The translations under genes and the position numbers were made by a program. Of a DNA stretch of 17,688 nucleotides, positions 1 through 16,945 are shown piece after piece. The notes beneath the pieces were generated by a model, which saw nothing but the letters and a program-made list of their open reading frames with translations, searched no databases and was not told the origin of the DNA. Every line of letters starts with the position of its first letter. The stretch's first letter is position 1. Source of the DNA: Candidatus Heimdallarchaeota archaeon (GTDB lineage Archaea; Asgardarchaeota; Heimdallarchaeia; Heimdallarchaeales; DAOWED01); assembly GCA_030638685.1 (NCBI GenBank), contig DAOWED010000075.1, positions 1 to 17,688 on the forward strand, written 5' to 3'.

Positions 1-29
1 AGAAAAAGAAAAAAGGTTTAATTAAAAAG

Positions 30-710
30 TTGGTTTCAAAATTCAAGAAAGATTCAACACCAGATGACATGAAATTAGTAAAAGGAACAATTGGAGACTT
101 AGGAGAAGTAGTTGTCGTGATGTCAGATATTCTTGAAAGCTTCGATGTTGAGTATGAGAATGAAGTTGAAAATAAAAGAAATGCTGTCGATAAAGTATGG
201 GTAAAACTACCTAAGTTTATGCAAAGCAGACATCTTAAAGAACAAACAAGAGAAAGGGAAAGAATTAGTAAAGGGAAGAAACAATTAACCACCGTTAAAT
301 CATCATTAAGTAATATGATGACGGTGATTGAGCAATCACCAGATAATTTTGAAAAAGTAGCAGAAACATATGTTGAAGTTGTTTCACCTGCAGGAATAAC
401 TGATGAGAAGGCAGAGGAAATCGAAGAAAAGATAAATGCAATGCAGCTTGAATTTGTTCAATATATGGAAGAAATGCAGAAACAGTTACTTCTACTAAGA
501 ACAACAATGGATCATATGGCTCAAGATTTAGGAGAACATGGAGTTAAAATAGATCATATTACTGAAAAAGTAGAAGAAGTATCAACTAAGCTAGATTCTG
601 TCCAAGAAAAACTTAAGGAGATAAGTAGAAAACTTACAAAAAACAGACTTTTGATGTTTGCATTAGCAACAGGAGTAACTATAGTACTACTCAAAGCAAT
701 ACTGCCATAA
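30..710 (+). CDS. Coiled-coil tail-anchored membrane protein, SNARE-like; may be 5'-truncated because the frame stays open to the window edge
   Basis: Frame of 226 aa from a TTG. C-terminus is LRTTMDHMAQDLGEHGVKIDHITEKVEEVSTKLDSVQEKLKEISRKLTKNR followed by the hydrophobic segment LLMFALATGVTIVLLKAILP and stop. The heptad segment resembles a t-SNARE motif by eye. Confidence 0.75.
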   Translation: MVSKFKKDSTPDDMKLVKGTIGDLGEVVVVMSDILESFDVEYENEVENKRNAVDKVWVKLPKFMQSRHLKEQTRERERISKGKKQLTTVKSSLSNMMTVIEQSPDNFEKVAETYVEVVSPAGITDEKAEEIEEKINAMQLEFVQYMEEMQKQLLLLRTTMDHMAQDLGEHGVKIDHITEKVEEVSTKLDSVQEKLKEISRKLTKNRLLMFALATGVTIVLLKAILP

Positions 711-2550: not shown

Positions 2551-3171
2551 TTACTCATTAATTTCATTCCCACAATTATAACAAAATTTTTGCTCACTGG
2601 CCATCTGCTCTATTCCACAATTTGGACACGTATCAGTTGCTTCTAGCTTTTTTTCTTTCGGTGGAGCTATTGTTTCTTTTACGGTTTGAGCTCTTTTAAA
2701 TGGAGATCTGCACGAATAACAAAATTTAGCTATTTCCGGATTCATGGCCTTACACTCTAGGCACTGTTTTGTCGCTCTTGATATGTGTTGCACTGGAACT
2801 GGACTTGTTGTTTTTTCTTGCTCGCGTCCTCTATAAGCGCCACTTTTGTCTTCGGGGATCTCTTTCCCTAACAGCTTCATAAACCAATCATAGCCTGATG
2901 GCCACAATCGATATGAATAATAAAGGGAAACAACTACAAAAACAACTTGCAAAAGATAACCAAAAATTAACACGCTTGGATCTCCTCCTGAGTTTTCAGC
3001 TTGGATTCTCCATGGAAGCAAAACTACTACGAAATAACTGAAGAGTGAATAAACTGCAAAAATGAAAAGAACAATTCCGGTTGTTTTGCGCTCAAAGATT
3101 GAAGATCCACAATTAATACAACGGTAACTGTTGGGAGTATTAGTTGTTCTACAGTTGCGACATTTTTTCAT
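2551..3171 (-). CDS. Membrane protein with three zinc ribbons and two predicted transmembrane helices
   Basis: CRNC-x9-CINC, then hydrophobic segments TGIVLFIFAVYSLFSYFVVVLL and VLIFGYLLQVVFVVVSLYYSY, then CLEC...CYSC and CPNC...CYNC ribbons. Confidence 0.8.
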   Translation of the reverse strand: MKKCRNCRTTNTPNSYRCINCGSSIFERKTTGIVLFIFAVYSLFSYFVVVLLPWRIQAENSGGDPSVLIFGYLLQVVFVVVSLYYSYRLWPSGYDWFMKLLGKEIPEDKSGAYRGREQEKTTSPVPVQHISRATKQCLECKAMNPEIAKFCYSCRSPFKRAQTVKETIAPPKEKKLEATDTCPNCGIEQMASEQKFCYNCGNEINE

Positions 3172-5699: not shown

Positions 5700-5940
5700 T
5701 TACCATCATCTATAAAATGTATTAATTATTCCGTTTAGTGCCATCAATTATGTTTTTTAAACTCTACGCTAGTAATCAAATGTTTGAATTTTGCATTTAT
5801 TAATAATTTAATGGCAAATTGGTGAATTATATAACTAGCATTGTTCAAAATGTCCTTTTAATAAAAAAATTACTCTTTGCAATAATATTATAAAACGAGT
5901 AAATGTAGTATATTTAAGAATAGAATTTTGGTGAGAAAAA

Positions 5941-6384
5941 ATAACTAATACATGGAAAATAACCTTTGAAGCAACAAGTCCAGTACCTGATGATGATTTA
6001 ATCTTAGAGTTCGTTGATGCTAGCGATCTTATAGGAGAACCAGTATTAAATGAGACTTTTATAGATCACATTGTTCAAAACGCAAAAATACATGATTCTT
6101 ATTCCATTTTTAGAAATGTAAAAGCTATTAAATCTGATACTGGAGAAGATCTAACTGGTCGAGCAATATGGGCCCTTCTTGGTATAACTAGTGAATCTGA
6201 AGAAAAAATAGGCTTTTTACTTGGAAGTTTACAAAAAGGTGGATATCATGTCATCGGTTTTTGGCCCAAAGAGTTTGCTGCCAAAATTGATAATGATGAA
6301 ACTATTTGGAGAGATAAAATTCAACAGTTTGGTGCCGACCCAAGTTTTTGGCGTCAAGTCGATCTCATAATCGGTTATGAGTAG
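5941..6384 (+). CDS. Uncharacterised ~147-aa protein lacking a canonical start codon (ATA start or +1 frameshift candidate)
   Basis: Open frame ITNTWKITFEATSPVPDDDLILEFVDASDLIGEPVLNETFIDHIVQNAKIHDSYSIFRNVKAIKSDTGEDLTGRAIWALLGITSESEEKIGFLLGSLQKGGYHVIGFWPKEFAAKIDNDETIWRDKIQQFGADPSFWRQVDLIIGYE*. It contains no in-frame ATG/GTG/TTG. GGTGAG (5930-5935) is 5 nt before ATA (5941). Composition looks protein-like. Confidence 0.6.
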   Translation: MTNTWKITFEATSPVPDDDLILEFVDASDLIGEPVLNETFIDHIVQNAKIHDSYSIFRNVKAIKSDTGEDLTGRAIWALLGITSESEEKIGFLLGSLQKGGYHVIGFWPKEFAAKIDNDETIWRDKIQQFGADPSFWRQVDLIIGYE

Positions 6385-6422: not shown

Positions 6423-6926
6423 TCAATCTATATTTAATTCAAACACGTGATCAGCTAAACCTTTGATAGCAACTGAAAAACCGGGATCAAAACCGGCTAC
6501 AGCAACCTCTTTCCCTTTTTCCTTAAGTTTCATTATAATTGGTGAAATACGTGCATCTCTAGAACAGATTAAGGTTAAATCGGTTGTTCCTTTATGATAT
6601 TGCTCCAAAGCATGAATCCCCATAGTTAGAGAAAGATCCCCGTGTGAAACAATTGGAGTATAACCAGAGTTAACTACTGCATCCATTAAACCATTGGAAG
6701 CTTTCTGATCAAGGAAGACTTTCTTTTCAACGATGGCACCTAAGAAGTTGGCAACCTCATTAATATCCTCAAGTTTAACTCGATGTCCTTTTACTGTGCG
6801 TAATATATTAGGTCCATCTACAAAGATAACTATTTTTTTTTCTCTTTTAAATAGAGATTTTAGAGTAGTCCACCTGCTAGATAACGTAGGTGATTGATCG
6901 TCTTTTTCTAAATTCATTTTAATCAC
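6423..6926 (-). CDS. NYN-domain (LabA/DUF88-like, PIN-fold) putative ribonuclease; start possibly ATG at 6917
   Basis: KIVIFVDGPNILR (catalytic Asp near strand 1), VVNSGYTPIVSHGDLSLTMGIHALEQYHKGTTDLTLICSRDARISPIIMKLKEKGKEVAVAG. This is the typical NYN D/D/D layout. Confidence 0.85.
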   Translation of the reverse strand: MIKMNLEKDDQSPTLSSRWTTLKSLFKREKKIVIFVDGPNILRTVKGHRVKLEDINEVANFLGAIVEKKVFLDQKASNGLMDAVVNSGYTPIVSHGDLSLTMGIHALEQYHKGTTDLTLICSRDARISPIIMKLKEKGKEVAVAGFDPGFSVAIKGLADHVFELNID

Positions 6927-8865
6927 TAGTCGTTTCTGAAGCGCTTATCAAACTATCAGGAGGCGTCATTTGTTCGTTCAAACGAACTACCGTGGTATCC
7001 TCGAGAGTTTCTGTTGTCACAAAACCAAATAATTCTAATTCAGCTACTGACTTTCGGACAACAGCAGGATGCATGGTAAGCATACGAGCAATATCCTGTT
7101 CCTTTAATTCAGAACTCAGTCCGTGCAGAAGGAAAATAATCATGTATTTTTGATCATTAACAAGATAGTTTTGAAGATAGGAGCCGAGTTCTTCCAAATG
7201 AACCAATTCATTTTGGTAAGAAACGAGTTTTTGTTCTAACTCATCTTTAACCTCAACATTCATTGTAATTTTGCCTTCATATCCTGACAATTCCTCTTTT
7301 AGAGTTGTAAGTTCGGTTTCAAGAACGCTCTTTTCTTCAATCATCAGTTCATGTTTGGAAAGAGAAGAATTGAATTCATCTTGGATGGAAGTTTTTTCAG
7401 TGGAAACCGCATCATATTTTTCTTGTATTGCGTCTAATGAAGTAGTAAATTCCTCCTTTTCTTTAGCAAGAGAAGAATAGTCATTCTTTACTCGATTAAT
7501 TTCGCTTTCCGTTTCTGAGAGTGATGCCTTCAATTCGGTTAGTGAACTTTCATATTCAGCTTTTTGAGTTGTAGATTCCGACATAATGCGTTCTCTTTCA
7601 GAATCCCATTGGCTTTGAATCTTAGAAATTTCGGTTGGGAACACTTCTTCACTAACTGTTGATTCTGACTCCAAGGATTGAAGTTTTTCATGATAAATTT
7701 GATTTTGTGCATCCAAAGCAGTCTTCTCTGATTCTAATTGAGAATGGGTCTTTTCAAGTTCGGTTAATTTATTTTCCACTGAAGTTTTGACTTCTCTAAG
7801 CTCGGTTAACTCATCGTTCAATTTAGTTGTTTCTTGATCAAGATTAAGTAATCTTGTTTCTAAACCATTCTTTTCTGTAGAAACAGTTTTGTGAGCAGCT
7901 TCTAACTGAGTTAGTTTCTCATTCACTGAAATACTATCTGTTTCACTGCTCTCCATTCTTACTTTCACTTGTGAAAGCTCTAAGTTAAGAGTTCTAATCT
8001 CTTCATTCTTACTAACCATTTCATTTCTAACACTGAACTGTTCTTCCCTTGATTTTTCAAGTTCTTCTTGAAGTGATTTAAAAGCATCACTTTGCTCCTT
8101 ATACTGTTGACTGATTAATTCTCGTTCTCTATTGCTATAATCAGAAAGTTGATTCCTTAAGGTTTTTAGTTCTTCTTGTTGACGATCTATTGTTGCTTTA
8201 AAGCGGGAGATGTCATTTTGTGTATCATCAATGTGTGTCTCCCTATCACCTAAAGCTTCCTGCATCTCTTCTTGCTCAAGACGCATTTGCATCAAAGTTG
8301 CTCCAAGCTGCATATTTTGGCTTTCAAGCCTTTCAATTCCGGCTTCAAGATTAGTTATTTCTGAATTTTTGAGTCTATTTTCTTCACTCAAAGAATTCAT
8401 TTGGTCGACAAGATCCACGTTTTCAGTGGATAGATCAGAGACTGTTTCTGACTGTTCAACAAGAGAGGCTTGATATTGAGCTACTCGTGCTTCTGACAAA
8501 CTGCTTTCAACAGGAGATTGTGTTTGTAAACGTCGGAGTTCTTCTAAAAATTCAGCCTCTATAACGTTTCCTTGTGCTAGTCCTGTTTCAATTCCCTCGC
8601 GTATCTTAGAACCTGATTCTGTCTCAATTTTGAGATAAACGGTTCTTAAGAAATGTATCAAACCATCCTTAAATCGGTTTGAAATTTCAGCAATTTCAGA
8701 GGCAGGATATTGTGAAACTCCAGGAGTTAGTGAGCTTGCTCTTAATTCCTCAGCTTTAGCTCTTAACTGGTCTTCATGCAATAATCTTTGATCTCTCATA
8801 TCTTTCAAATAGTCAAGAATTACTTCTCGAATCACTGTTACTCTGATTTCTTGAAAATGTTCCAT
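6919..8865 (-). CDS. Long coiled-coil protein with C-terminal winged-helix-like domain
   Basis: 648 aa. Extended heptad-rich Glu/Lys/Leu/Ser region across the middle ~450 aa. C-terminal MIIFLLHGLSSELKEQDIARMLTMHPAVVRKSVAELELFGFVTTETLEDTTVVRLNE resembles a wHTH. The stop overlaps the NYN ORF start. Confidence 0.8.
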   Translation of the reverse strand: MEHFQEIRVTVIREVILDYLKDMRDQRLLHEDQLRAKAEELRASSLTPGVSQYPASEIAEISNRFKDGLIHFLRTVYLKIETESGSKIREGIETGLAQGNVIEAEFLEELRRLQTQSPVESSLSEARVAQYQASLVEQSETVSDLSTENVDLVDQMNSLSEENRLKNSEITNLEAGIERLESQNMQLGATLMQMRLEQEEMQEALGDRETHIDDTQNDISRFKATIDRQQEELKTLRNQLSDYSNRERELISQQYKEQSDAFKSLQEELEKSREEQFSVRNEMVSKNEEIRTLNLELSQVKVRMESSETDSISVNEKLTQLEAAHKTVSTEKNGLETRLLNLDQETTKLNDELTELREVKTSVENKLTELEKTHSQLESEKTALDAQNQIYHEKLQSLESESTVSEEVFPTEISKIQSQWDSERERIMSESTTQKAEYESSLTELKASLSETESEINRVKNDYSSLAKEKEEFTTSLDAIQEKYDAVSTEKTSIQDEFNSSLSKHELMIEEKSVLETELTTLKEELSGYEGKITMNVEVKDELEQKLVSYQNELVHLEELGSYLQNYLVNDQKYMIIFLLHGLSSELKEQDIARMLTMHPAVVRKSVAELELFGFVTTETLEDTTVVRLNEQMTPPDSLISASETTSD

Positions 8866-12311: not shown

Positions 12312-13997
12312 ATGGAATCATCGAATAAAAACGCCCTCAGAAAACAGATACTTATCTTCATCCTTCTTCTTGTTAATATCATAGTAAGGCTCCTTCCAAC
12401 TTTGAGTTCAAGAACTCTCTGGGGAGTGGATGCTTGGGACTATATTTATTATATTAAACAATCAATTGAGGGTTCCCAGATTATTTCTCCGGAGTTACAT
12501 GTTCCCGGTTTCTATATTCTGATGACATCCTACTGTCATATTGTTGACATCGATCCTGAAATAGCTTACCTTTTTCTTCCTCAATTAGTTCTAGGCCTTC
12601 TTACTTTAGAGATGTTCATTCTTGCAAGAGTTCTAACCAAAGATGATTCAGCTGGAATAATAGCTCTCCTTTTAACTAGTAGCGGTGGAATTTATGTTCT
12701 TAGAACAATGCTTGTTATTCCAGAATCTTTTGGTTTAAGTTTAATCCCCCTTGGTTTATGGTTATACTGGAAAATGCTTACTATTAGAACTAAAGAGTGG
12801 TCAATTTCATTTCTTATGATCGGTACTACTATTGTTTCTATGCATCATTTATCTGGAGGAGTTTTTCTATGTGCGATAAATTTCATTACTCTTTGGTTCA
12901 GTCTTAACAAGAACCATCGAAAAGATATTTGGGCAAAGGTTATCTTCTTGAACGTTGTAACGTTGATTATTTGGTCTATTACAAGCAAAAACTATCCTTT
13001 TATCGTTGCTCAAAGAGGGTCTCAGTATTTTCTAATTCTAGCACTAGTGATGATTGGTATTTCCATCATTCTTTTTTCAACTAGAGCTATGAAGCCTAGA
13101 GTAATCAAATTAATTCAGTCCGAACTCGTTCAACAATCTTGGTCTTACGTTCTATTCATAACAATTATTCTTCTTTCTTTATGGGTTGGCCTGCGAGCTG
13201 ATTTATCTTTCAAAGTTATAGCTTCATTTCTTCCTGTATCTCTTTTTATTCCCTTTACTCTTGTATGTATCCAAAAAGATTCATTTCAACTTCAACATGC
13301 TAGATCGTTTTTCCTTGGGATGATTTTTTCATATTTCATACTCTTTTCATTAATTGCCTTTAATCCATCAATACAGACACTATTAGGCAGATATGCAGAA
13401 TTCTTGATACAGATTGCTGTTCTTGGAACAGCTATGGGAGCTTCTATAAAACTGAAAGATAAGAACGGAAGGAGAAAATTATATGGATTCACTTTAGCAA
13501 TATTAATGATTACCAACTTTCCTCTTGCATATCCTGATCCCGACATTTGGATGGGTACAACTTTCAATTACTATAGTGAAGAATTAGAGGCAGCAGAATG
13601 GCTTGAAATAAGGATTGATGATCTTGGACTTGATCCAGAAATATCTATAATTGATACGGATAATCGTTTGGGAGTGATGCTTAGGGGGCACGTGGGATTA
13701 AATAGCAGTTGTGGAGAGCCAAGTGATAGCGAACTTGCTTACCTTATTCGTGAAAAACTATCTTTAATTGAAATTGCTTCATACCACTTTTCAAATCATT
13801 CTTTTATTTTCCTTTCACAAGTAATAGTGGATTCGACTTTTGCTATGGGTAAATTTGGGCATGGTCGAACTTTTTCAACAAGTGATATTGCACTTGAAGT
13901 AAGTTCCTACTTTATTTATGCCTTAAATCAACACCCTCAACTTGAAAAAGTGCTAGACTTAGGTAGCGTTTGGATATGGGAGATTAACAATAGCTGA
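12312..13997 (+). CDS. Polytopic membrane protein, GT-C-glycosyltransferase-like
   Basis: 561 aa with about 10 or more hydrophobic segments. An Asp-containing first loop (SSRTLWGVDAWDYIYYIKQSIE...PELHVPGFYILM) recalls GT-C/PMT-type enzymes. ATG start. Confidence 0.6.
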   Translation: MESSNKNALRKQILIFILLLVNIIVRLLPTLSSRTLWGVDAWDYIYYIKQSIEGSQIISPELHVPGFYILMTSYCHIVDIDPEIAYLFLPQLVLGLLTLEMFILARVLTKDDSAGIIALLLTSSGGIYVLRTMLVIPESFGLSLIPLGLWLYWKMLTIRTKEWSISFLMIGTTIVSMHHLSGGVFLCAINFITLWFSLNKNHRKDIWAKVIFLNVVTLIIWSITSKNYPFIVAQRGSQYFLILALVMIGISIILFSTRAMKPRVIKLIQSELVQQSWSYVLFITIILLSLWVGLRADLSFKVIASFLPVSLFIPFTLVCIQKDSFQLQHARSFFLGMIFSYFILFSLIAFNPSIQTLLGRYAEFLIQIAVLGTAMGASIKLKDKNGRRKLYGFTLAILMITNFPLAYPDPDIWMGTTFNYYSEELEAAEWLEIRIDDLGLDPEISIIDTDNRLGVMLRGHVGLNSSCGEPSDSELAYLIREKLSLIEIASYHFSNHSFIFLSQVIVDSTFAMGKFGHGRTFSTSDIALEVSSYFIYALNQHPQLEKVLDLGSVWIWEINNS

Positions 13998-16378: not shown

Positions 16379-16945
16379 TTATGGAACAACTAAACGATAA
16401 ATAATAGATTCTTCAGCAAATACACTGCTTCTGACTATTCTTACAACATCTCCAGCCAACGCATGAATGGTTTTTATTGCAGGATCGTTTTCAAAAATTT
16501 TGGGTAAGTCTCTAACTCCAATGTTGTATCTTGTAGTCATTTCTTCGATTTCTTCTGAAGTTAGTATTTCATGAAGTGGAACTAAGTCATGCTTGAATAA
16601 ATCAAAAATAGGGTGAGAAGATGATAAAATTTCTATTCCTGTACTTTCAGCTTCCTTTTTAGCATAATGAGTAAATCGCCTTCTGCTTACTAATACTGCA
16701 GAACTTAATCCTTCCTTCTCGAGTTTTTCGTTTACTTCCCTTACAAAAGAAATACCTACAACTTCTTTCATAGGTATTCTAACAATCATTTTTTCAGAAG
16801 TTTTATCGGAATCAGCATAGATATCTAGTGATTTTTCGGTCTCTTCATAAGAAGTGACTGTGTAACCTCTTCTTTTAAGAATATCAGTTATACCTCTTTT
16901 GTATCTTTCAATTTCGTCTTCTGTGAGTCTTTGATTACTACTCAT
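16379..16945 (-). CDS. rpoH: DNA-directed RNA polymerase subunit H (Rpb5-like) with additional N-terminal domain
   Basis: C-terminus HPIFDLFKHDLVPLHEILTSEEIEEMTTRYNIGVRDLPKIFENDPAIKTIHALAGDVVRIVRSSVFAEESIIYRLVVP is a classic RpoH/Rpb5 domain. It is preceded by ~110 extra residues. Confidence 0.92.
   Translation of the reverse strand: MSSNQRLTEDEIERYKRGITDILKRRGYTVTSYEETEKSLDIYADSDKTSEKMIVRIPMKEVVGISFVREVNEKLEKEGLSSAVLVSRRRFTHYAKKEAESTGIEILSSSHPIFDLFKHDLVPLHEILTSEEIEEMTTRYNIGVRDLPKIFENDPAIKTIHALAGDVVRIVRSSVFAEESIIYRLVVP

Follow-up and report, generated by a model that had tools for sequence, protein, structure and literature searches.

Tail-anchored SNARE-like protein with a histidine at the 0-layer in a Heimdall-group archaeon

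The first reading frame of a 17,688-nucleotide stretch of DNA from a Candidatus Heimdallarchaeota archaeon (the whole stretch is called the window below) ends in a heptad coil and a hydrophobic tail. It raises the question of whether its product is a relative of the eukaryotic SNAREs or one of many coiled coils attached to a membrane. A sequence-only reading had placed a syntaxin-like SNARE motif followed by a C-terminal anchor at positions 495-707; this observation is real, and its peptide, coordinates and register are right. The class had also been taken to be a known one, as it is: the family was published in 2019/2020 by Neveu, Khalifeh, Salamin & Fasshauer (10.1101/810531; Curr Biol 2020), who described four ‘Heimdallarchaeota prototypic SNAREs’ (HPS), namely HPS1 (PWI47941.1, from B3_Heim/B3-JM-08), HPS2 (OLS22354.1, LC_2), OLS23218.1 (LC_3) and RMG36020.1. 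These proteins are tail-anchored; their SNARE-like motif is complete, has a Gln at its center and is followed by a short linker, and their N-terminal regions are helical and predicted to form a three-helix bundle. A single SNARE-like copy per genome was found in the original paper (10.1101/810531). The explanation favored here, with a probability of about 0.75, is that the window encodes a tail-anchored protein of the HPS family that would act by forming a helical bundle of the SNARE kind.

Protein anatomy and membership in the HPS family

The reading frame lies at 3-710 of the window on the forward strand, is open at the window's 5′ end and covers residues 8-242, plus the stop codon, of a 242-residue tail-anchored SNARE-like protein; its translation includes ...TTMDHMAQDLGEHGVKIDHITEKVEEVSTKLDSVQEKLKEISRKLTKNRLLMFALATGVTIVLLKAILP*. 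The window protein is 100% identical to P0001, the 242-residue protein KAR35_11890 at NCBI, from which it follows that only seven codons (MTNEHQK) are missing from the window. The true N-terminus, which the sequence-only reading proposed to seek upstream of position 1, is thus recovered. Residue r of the full protein maps to window nucleotide 3r-21.

The full protein begins with MTNEHQKKKKKG..., in which a lysine run at residues 7-11 is followed by a basic stretch; the polybasic part inside the window (3-50, forward strand) reads KKKKGLIKKLVSKFKK. Such a lysine run is common to about half of the family alignment. The N-terminal helical region that follows (60-383, forward strand) comprises three predicted helices, at residues 27-63, 83-117 and 123-134, which precede the motif in an AlphaFold2 model (m4c5a56a5e3ae, built with 20 homologues) whose mean pLDDT is 72.8 and whose pTM is 0.65. 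Further helices are predicted at 141-185, 191-218 and 222-240, and local pLDDT is about 82-88 at residues 31-100 and 78 at 101-110. Neither the N-terminal region of P0001 nor the N-terminal family consensus matches any Pfam family; syntaxin N-terminal families are absent from the matches, the nearest related one being STX6_10_61_N at E 0.23. Foldseek comparison of the monomer model with PDB structures yielded nothing at E<=0.001, designed helical bundles came top, and for an all-helical predicted model such a search is uninformative.

The SNARE-like motif itself occupies 465-623 (forward strand), from Met162 (layer -7) to Ile214 (layer +8). Its 16 heptad layers fall at residues 162, 165, 169, 172, 176, 179, 183, 186, 190, 193, 197, 200, 204, 207, 211 and 214, with 3-4-3-4 spacing, and every layer residue is M, L, I or V save His186. 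The same 16 layers are shared by 20 homologues, among which 15 layers are nearly always hydrophobic (the exceptions, a few small or polar residues, fall mostly at +6) and layer 0 has Q or H. The heptad coil therefore extends further than had been marked: position 495 marks the codon of Leu172 (layer -4), and the peptide first quoted begins only at nucleotide 507. The codons of layer 0, read directly, are CAT for His186 (537-539) and GGA for Gly187, together 537-542 on the forward strand.

Between layer +8 and the membrane lies a short basic linker, SRKLTKNR (residues 215-222; 624-647, forward strand), in which 38-39 of 45 family sequences keep T219, N221 and R/K222. The anchor, Leu223-Leu241 plus Pro242, spans 648-707 on the forward strand, 707 being the end of the final sense codon and TAA following at 708-710. 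The hydrophobic tail predicted at the stop is thus borne out as 19 residues (223-241) and a proline, with a mean Kyte-Doolittle hydropathy of 2.35 against at most 1.2 for every other segment of the protein. A hydrophobic tail is found in all full-length homologues. Layers at 162-214, a linker at 215-222, a transmembrane segment at 223-241 and one residue after it make up a tail-anchored layout.

Comparison with the published proteins was made with sequences machine-read from the supplement of Neveu et al., which contain a few errors; the C-terminus of HPS1 was confirmed from its locus in NJBF01000020.1 (L026), by DNA pattern scan. BLASTP aligns P0001 with HPS1 at E 2e-30 (30% identity over 227 residues), with HPS2 at E 5e-27 (32% identity) and with OLS23218.1 at E 3e-19 (28% identity), and the alignments are co-linear over 215-227 residues, essentially the whole length. 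Like the HPS proteins, P0001 has about 240 residues and the order helical N-terminal region, 16-layer motif, short basic linker and terminal transmembrane segment; the motif of HPS1, 159-211, corresponds to about 162-214 of P0001. P0001 is only 28-32% identical to these proteins and forms a separate branch in the family tree, its N-terminus carries a lysine run absent from HPS1, and it bears a His where Neveu et al. stressed a central Gln. Complexes with neuronal SNAREs in vitro, as seen on native gels, are reported for HPS1 and HPS2 only (10.1101/810531). Membership in the family is defined by homology and not by the central Gln, and P0001 is filed as a His variant. Both the membership and the tail-anchored layout are close to certain; as judged by homology, P0001 is a divergent His-bearing member of the HPS family and not a new kind of system.

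The relatives are few. A word-indexed protein search returned little, whereas exhaustive HMMER searching of 1.84 billion cluster representatives recovered the family, in only about 20 clusters of co-linear homologues of 235-250 residues. At the DNA level, a hand-built degenerate codon pattern with 18 constrained motif positions has one match in the window and none in 200 shuffles of it. Across one genome per species (185,579 species, 596 Gb) the pattern has 29 matches, 27 of them family members in metagenome-assembled genomes labelled Heimdall-, Hod- or Kariarchaeota, or, in a few cases, only archaeon, Promethearchaeota or Thorarchaeota. The two bacterial matches are not tail-anchored coiled coils and were set aside as chance matches. 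The family is almost only found in Heimdall-group archaea. Tandem SNARE-like paralogues, with Gln at the 0-layer in both copies, occur at L007 (5276-5908 and 5998-6711, forward strand) and at L019 (2990-3703 and 3760-4473, reverse strand); since two lineages carry such pairs, heteromeric complexes are conceivable in some genomes.

SNARE-like motif versus generic coiled coil

The main alternative reads the protein as a generic tail-anchored coiled coil whose likeness to SNAREs is convergent and which would serve as a static scaffold, tether or spacer, or in division or surface organization, without zippering. It is unlikely, and it draws first on the scores of the single sequence. The window translation reaches 22.8 bits (E 9e-5) against the Pfam SNARE family PF05739 and full-length P0001 20.9 bits, both below the gathering threshold of 26.8 bits; Bacillus_HBL scores 23.3 bits on the window protein, level with SNARE, and IFT57 and similar coiled-coil families are comparable. 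The PDB matches of the window protein alone are likewise led by designed coiled coils. The by-eye alignment from which the syntaxin likeness was first drawn has the right register, but its 8 identities in 29 with the syntaxin 1A core are not significant alone.

The signal emerges above chance only at the level of the family. The C-terminal 93 residues of the family consensus score 34.1 bits against PF05739 (E 2.7e-8; profile positions 3-53 of 53), above the Pfam cut-off and with a margin of 11 bits over every other family, the next best reaching 22.7 bits; V-SNARE_C and Synaptobrevin are also among the listed matches. Ten of the 20 family members each match Pfam SNARE at E<0.01, and any other family is matched by fewer. 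With 34.1 bits for the consensus against 22.8 and 20.9 for the single sequence, the family is SNARE-like at profile level, while this sequence alone is not annotatable as a SNARE. The comparison with generic coiled coils, which the sequence-only reading had named as a possible refutation, does not refute it: the single protein scores no better for SNARE than for such families, and the family consensus does, by 11 bits.

The Pfam match is confined to layers +1 to +8, the linker and the beginning of the transmembrane segment, with the 0-layer outside it; the N-terminal half of the motif and the 0-layer are backed by a profile search of the PDB. There the family profile matches syntaxin 7 (E 1.5e-4), syntaxin 6, SNAP-25, syntaxin 1A, syntaxin 13 and SNAP-29 in register, and the syntaxin 1A match extends through the linker and the transmembrane segment. 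The conserved ‘EQGvklDsIdeK’ of the family aligns with ‘EQGDVIDSIEANV’ of syntaxin 7, so that the family glutamine, His in the window protein, sits on the glutamine of syntaxin 7. The His at the 0-layer, first proposed from the triplet EHG, thus has its register supported by the family. In the same search designed coiled coils, reovirus sigma-1, chemoreceptors and GCN4 fusions score equal to or above natural SNAREs, a point on the side of a generic coil. Against it stand the single conserved buried polar residue and the invariant Gly placed exactly at the syntaxin 7 glutamine, the co-linearity with syntaxin 1A of the 16-layer length, the short basic linker and the terminal transmembrane segment, and the in vitro complexes of the homologues HPS1 and HPS2.

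Other observations that would suit a generic coil are contextual. Some relatives are annotated ‘chromosome segregation ATPase’ or ‘SbcCD ATPase subunit’, and there are weak NCBIfam matches to SMC and Rad50 families; these identities were rejected, since 242 residues, the absence of an ATPase domain and scores far below the cut-offs indicate that coiled-coil composition is being matched. No partner gene of the NSF, SNAP or SM type is encoded near the SNARE-like gene. In addition, a Heimdallarchaeaceae archaeon grown in culture, in which internal vesicles abound, was reported to be without SNARE homologues (10.1101/2025.11.06.686947), so SNARE-like proteins are not generally required for archaeal vesicles.

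The likeness to eukaryotic Q-SNAREs (PF05739; syntaxins 7, 6, 1A and 13) consists of 16 layers arranged round a single buried polar layer with a Gly after it (like the ‘QG’ of Qa-SNAREs), and of the basic linker and C-terminal transmembrane segment that come next. There are also differences. P0001 alone stays under the Pfam cut-off, and its 0-layer residue, in register with syntaxin 7, is polar but neither Gln nor Arg; exceptions at this layer exist among SNAREs, such as the Ser of Sec20 (supplement of Neveu et al., 10.1101/810531). The labels ‘syntaxin-like’ and ‘t-SNARE’ are too specific, as no Habc-type or other syntaxin N-terminal domain is detectable by sequence in P0001. According to Neveu et al., the HPS family falls outside the Qa, Qb, Qc and R types and is not assignable to any of them (10.1101/810531). 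Unlike eukaryotic SNAREs, it has no known partner of the NSF, alpha-SNAP or SM kind. SNARE-like heptad motifs are also present in prokaryotes in Chlamydia IncA, Legionella LseA and other Legionellales SNAREs, and IncA is among the non-significant Foldseek matches of the P0001 model. These bacterial effectors are secreted, act on host membranes, have in many cases been acquired from eukaryotes and use CAAX motifs or transmembrane hairpins as anchors, whereas P0001 is chromosomal, vertically inherited and tail-anchored.

For the HPS-family protein of the window, a mechanism can be sketched from HPS and eukaryotic SNARE biology. The tail would insert post-translationally, leaving the whole N-terminal part facing the cytoplasm, and the motif would zipper from N to C into a parallel helical bundle, with its own copies or with a partner. 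Such a bundle may pull or hold together two membranes, or two regions of one, as in SNARE-like tethering or fusion, and the N-terminal helices may fold back on the motif in an autoinhibitory ‘closed’ state. By analogy, this sequence of events is an even bet.

The adjacent gene and other neighbors

The SNARE-like gene stands alone, with a divergent gene upstream and a convergent TiaS gene on its other side. The upstream gene encodes a protein of about 350 residues (357 at this locus; L001:13-1086, reverse strand) and lies immediately upstream of window position 1. It has no meaningful Pfam or NCBIfam match, and its profile finds no PDB sequence at E<=1. Its homologues are 35-43% identical and share about 50 invariant residues (e.g. 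GFYLN.PV, TGPG, RG..SRN.F.PN and SAH); AlphaFold2 with five sequences gives a pLDDT of 44, too low for the model to be of use, with only residues about 10-95 confident. In all 11 loci where it was found (L001, L002, L004, L010, L011, L014, L015, L017, L021, L033 and L036), all within the window's half of the family tree, it directly adjoins the SNARE-like gene, in divergent orientation in seven loci, co-directionally upstream in three and co-directionally downstream in one, with gaps of 59-230 bp. Because the adjacency survives rearrangement, a functional link is suggested, and the protein is a candidate partner of the SNARE-like protein. A gene of unknown function was noted beside the LC_2 and J059 SNARE-like genes in the supplement of Neveu et al. 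(10.1101/810531), and it is probably the same gene.

A more elaborate reading joins the two genes in an archaeal membrane-tethering or fusion module, in which the His-0-layer proteins would form a homo-oligomeric bundle with a ring of histidines switchable by pH or metal ions and the neighbor would act as chaperone, regulator or disassembly factor. Its role would then be analogous to that of SM proteins or NSF/SNAP, with an unrelated fold. This proposal is distinctly improbable.

Elsewhere in the family the surroundings differ. Unlike P0001, HPS1 and LC_3 have a roadblock and TFE pair as neighbor (supplement of Neveu et al., 10.1101/810531), which is also seen in CP070695.1; at a Hodarchaeales-type locus (L005:6839-7971, forward strand) a roadblock/LC7 gene and TFE come after the SNARE-like gene. 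In another lineage (L006:6859-9092, reverse strand) the SNARE-like gene adjoins genes for a TPR protein and an Arf/Ras-like small GTPase.

Several other genes of the window merit mention in their own right. The product of the gene at 16379-16945 (reverse strand) has 188 residues; its C-terminal domain is that of Rpb5 (PF01191, E 6e-23) and its N-terminal domain resembles a restriction endonuclease (Mrr_cat, E 7e-8), which makes it a long RNA polymerase subunit of two domains, unlike the short archaeal subunit H. A frame at 5938-6384 (forward strand) aligns over 148 residues at 97% identity with a 150-residue gene at L004:15990-16442, the DNA being only 86% identical. The window copy lacks an ATG, GTG or TTG start and carries a stop codon where the orthologue has GTG, which explains its absence from the list of open reading frames; it may use a non-canonical start, or its start may be mis-called. 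At 6919-8865 (reverse strand) lies a 648-residue protein that is almost all coiled coil and has no Pfam family, followed with an 8-nt overlap by an NYN-domain (RNase-like) gene at 6423-6926 (reverse strand), and the pair is conserved in L004. A 561-residue polytopic membrane protein with no Pfam match is encoded at 12312-13997 (forward strand), and a 206-residue membrane protein with zinc ribbons at both ends at 2551-3171 (reverse strand). A search of the window for tRNA and Rfam elements found none.

Origin of the gene and histidine at the 0-layer

The gene for P0001 is the same on three independently assembled contigs (ENA, Logan and NCBI assemblies). An orthologue (P0002, locus L004), labelled Candidatus Kariarchaeaceae archaeon, is 89% identical and has its neighbor genes in the same order, and a dN/dS of 0.11 between the two indicates a real gene under purifying selection. 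Together with a GC content (32%) in line with that of the window (35.5%), these observations establish KAR35_11890 as a resident protein-coding archaeal gene under selection. A eukaryotic SNARE gene brought in by contamination of the bin or by recent horizontal transfer, for which the Legionellales SNAREs acquired from eukaryotic hosts offer a precedent, is effectively refuted by the matching GC, by the archaeal genes on its flanks (TiaS, SdhAB-like, CofC/CofD and an Rpb5-type subunit, in an order conserved between the two contigs that carry the 89%-identical SNARE-like genes), by the spread of the family across many Heimdall-group genomes and by the lack of any close eukaryotic relative, the motif identity to eukaryotic SNAREs being only 20-28% for the family (10.1101/810531).

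The 0-layer is strict. Among 45 distinct family sequences, a count that includes loci found later than the 20-member alignment, 40 have Q at position 186 and five have H, and no other residue occurs there. G187 and K196 are invariant (45 of 45), and L183, L204 and I214 nearly so. The positions from which the syntaxin likeness had been argued are also kept for the most part: I190 is I, L or M, D191 is D or E in 42 sequences, I193 is I in 38 and V197 is I, V or L in 44; only E198 is variable. Poor conservation of these positions, named by the sequence-only reading as a possible refutation, is thus not what the family shows.

All four proteins of the window's branch (P0001-P0004, 78-100% identical) retain His. 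It recurs in P0010 (L008, isolate S146_22, EEHGMK), in a branch otherwise with Gln, and in Dive100_bin10.34 (L010, DEHGVV), inside the HPS2-like group, which otherwise has Gln as well. Three separate branches imply at least three switches between Q and H, as counted on a neighbor-joining tree only. As only Q and H alternate there, in three lineages, the simplest view is that the buried layer tolerates His186 as a polar equivalent of Gln; a sensitivity to pH or metal ions that it might confer is speculation. Although CAT differs from the CAA or CAG of the relatives' Gln by a single third-position change, the idea that His186 is a sequencing or assembly error or the mark of a decaying gene is refuted by the same CAT on all three contigs and in the L004 orthologue, by the retention of His in P0002, P0003 and P0004 (78-89% identical to P0001), by the dN/dS of 0.11 and by the recurrence of His in two unrelated branches. 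The literature searched holds no report of a His 0-layer in the HPS family, nor of SNARE-like proteins in Kariarchaeaceae.

Few candidates exist for the precursors of the eukaryotic machinery of membrane fusion, and the SNARE-like proteins of Heimdall-group archaea are one of them; a role of these proteins in fusion in vivo is putative. The published set comprised only four sequences, all with a central Gln, to which the window locus adds a divergent branch. The gene that is always adjacent in this branch offers a concrete candidate partner, and the tandem paralogues of some genomes make heteromeric complexes possible. A buried layer that is strictly Q or H and has switched at least three times amounts to a natural mutant series for biochemistry.
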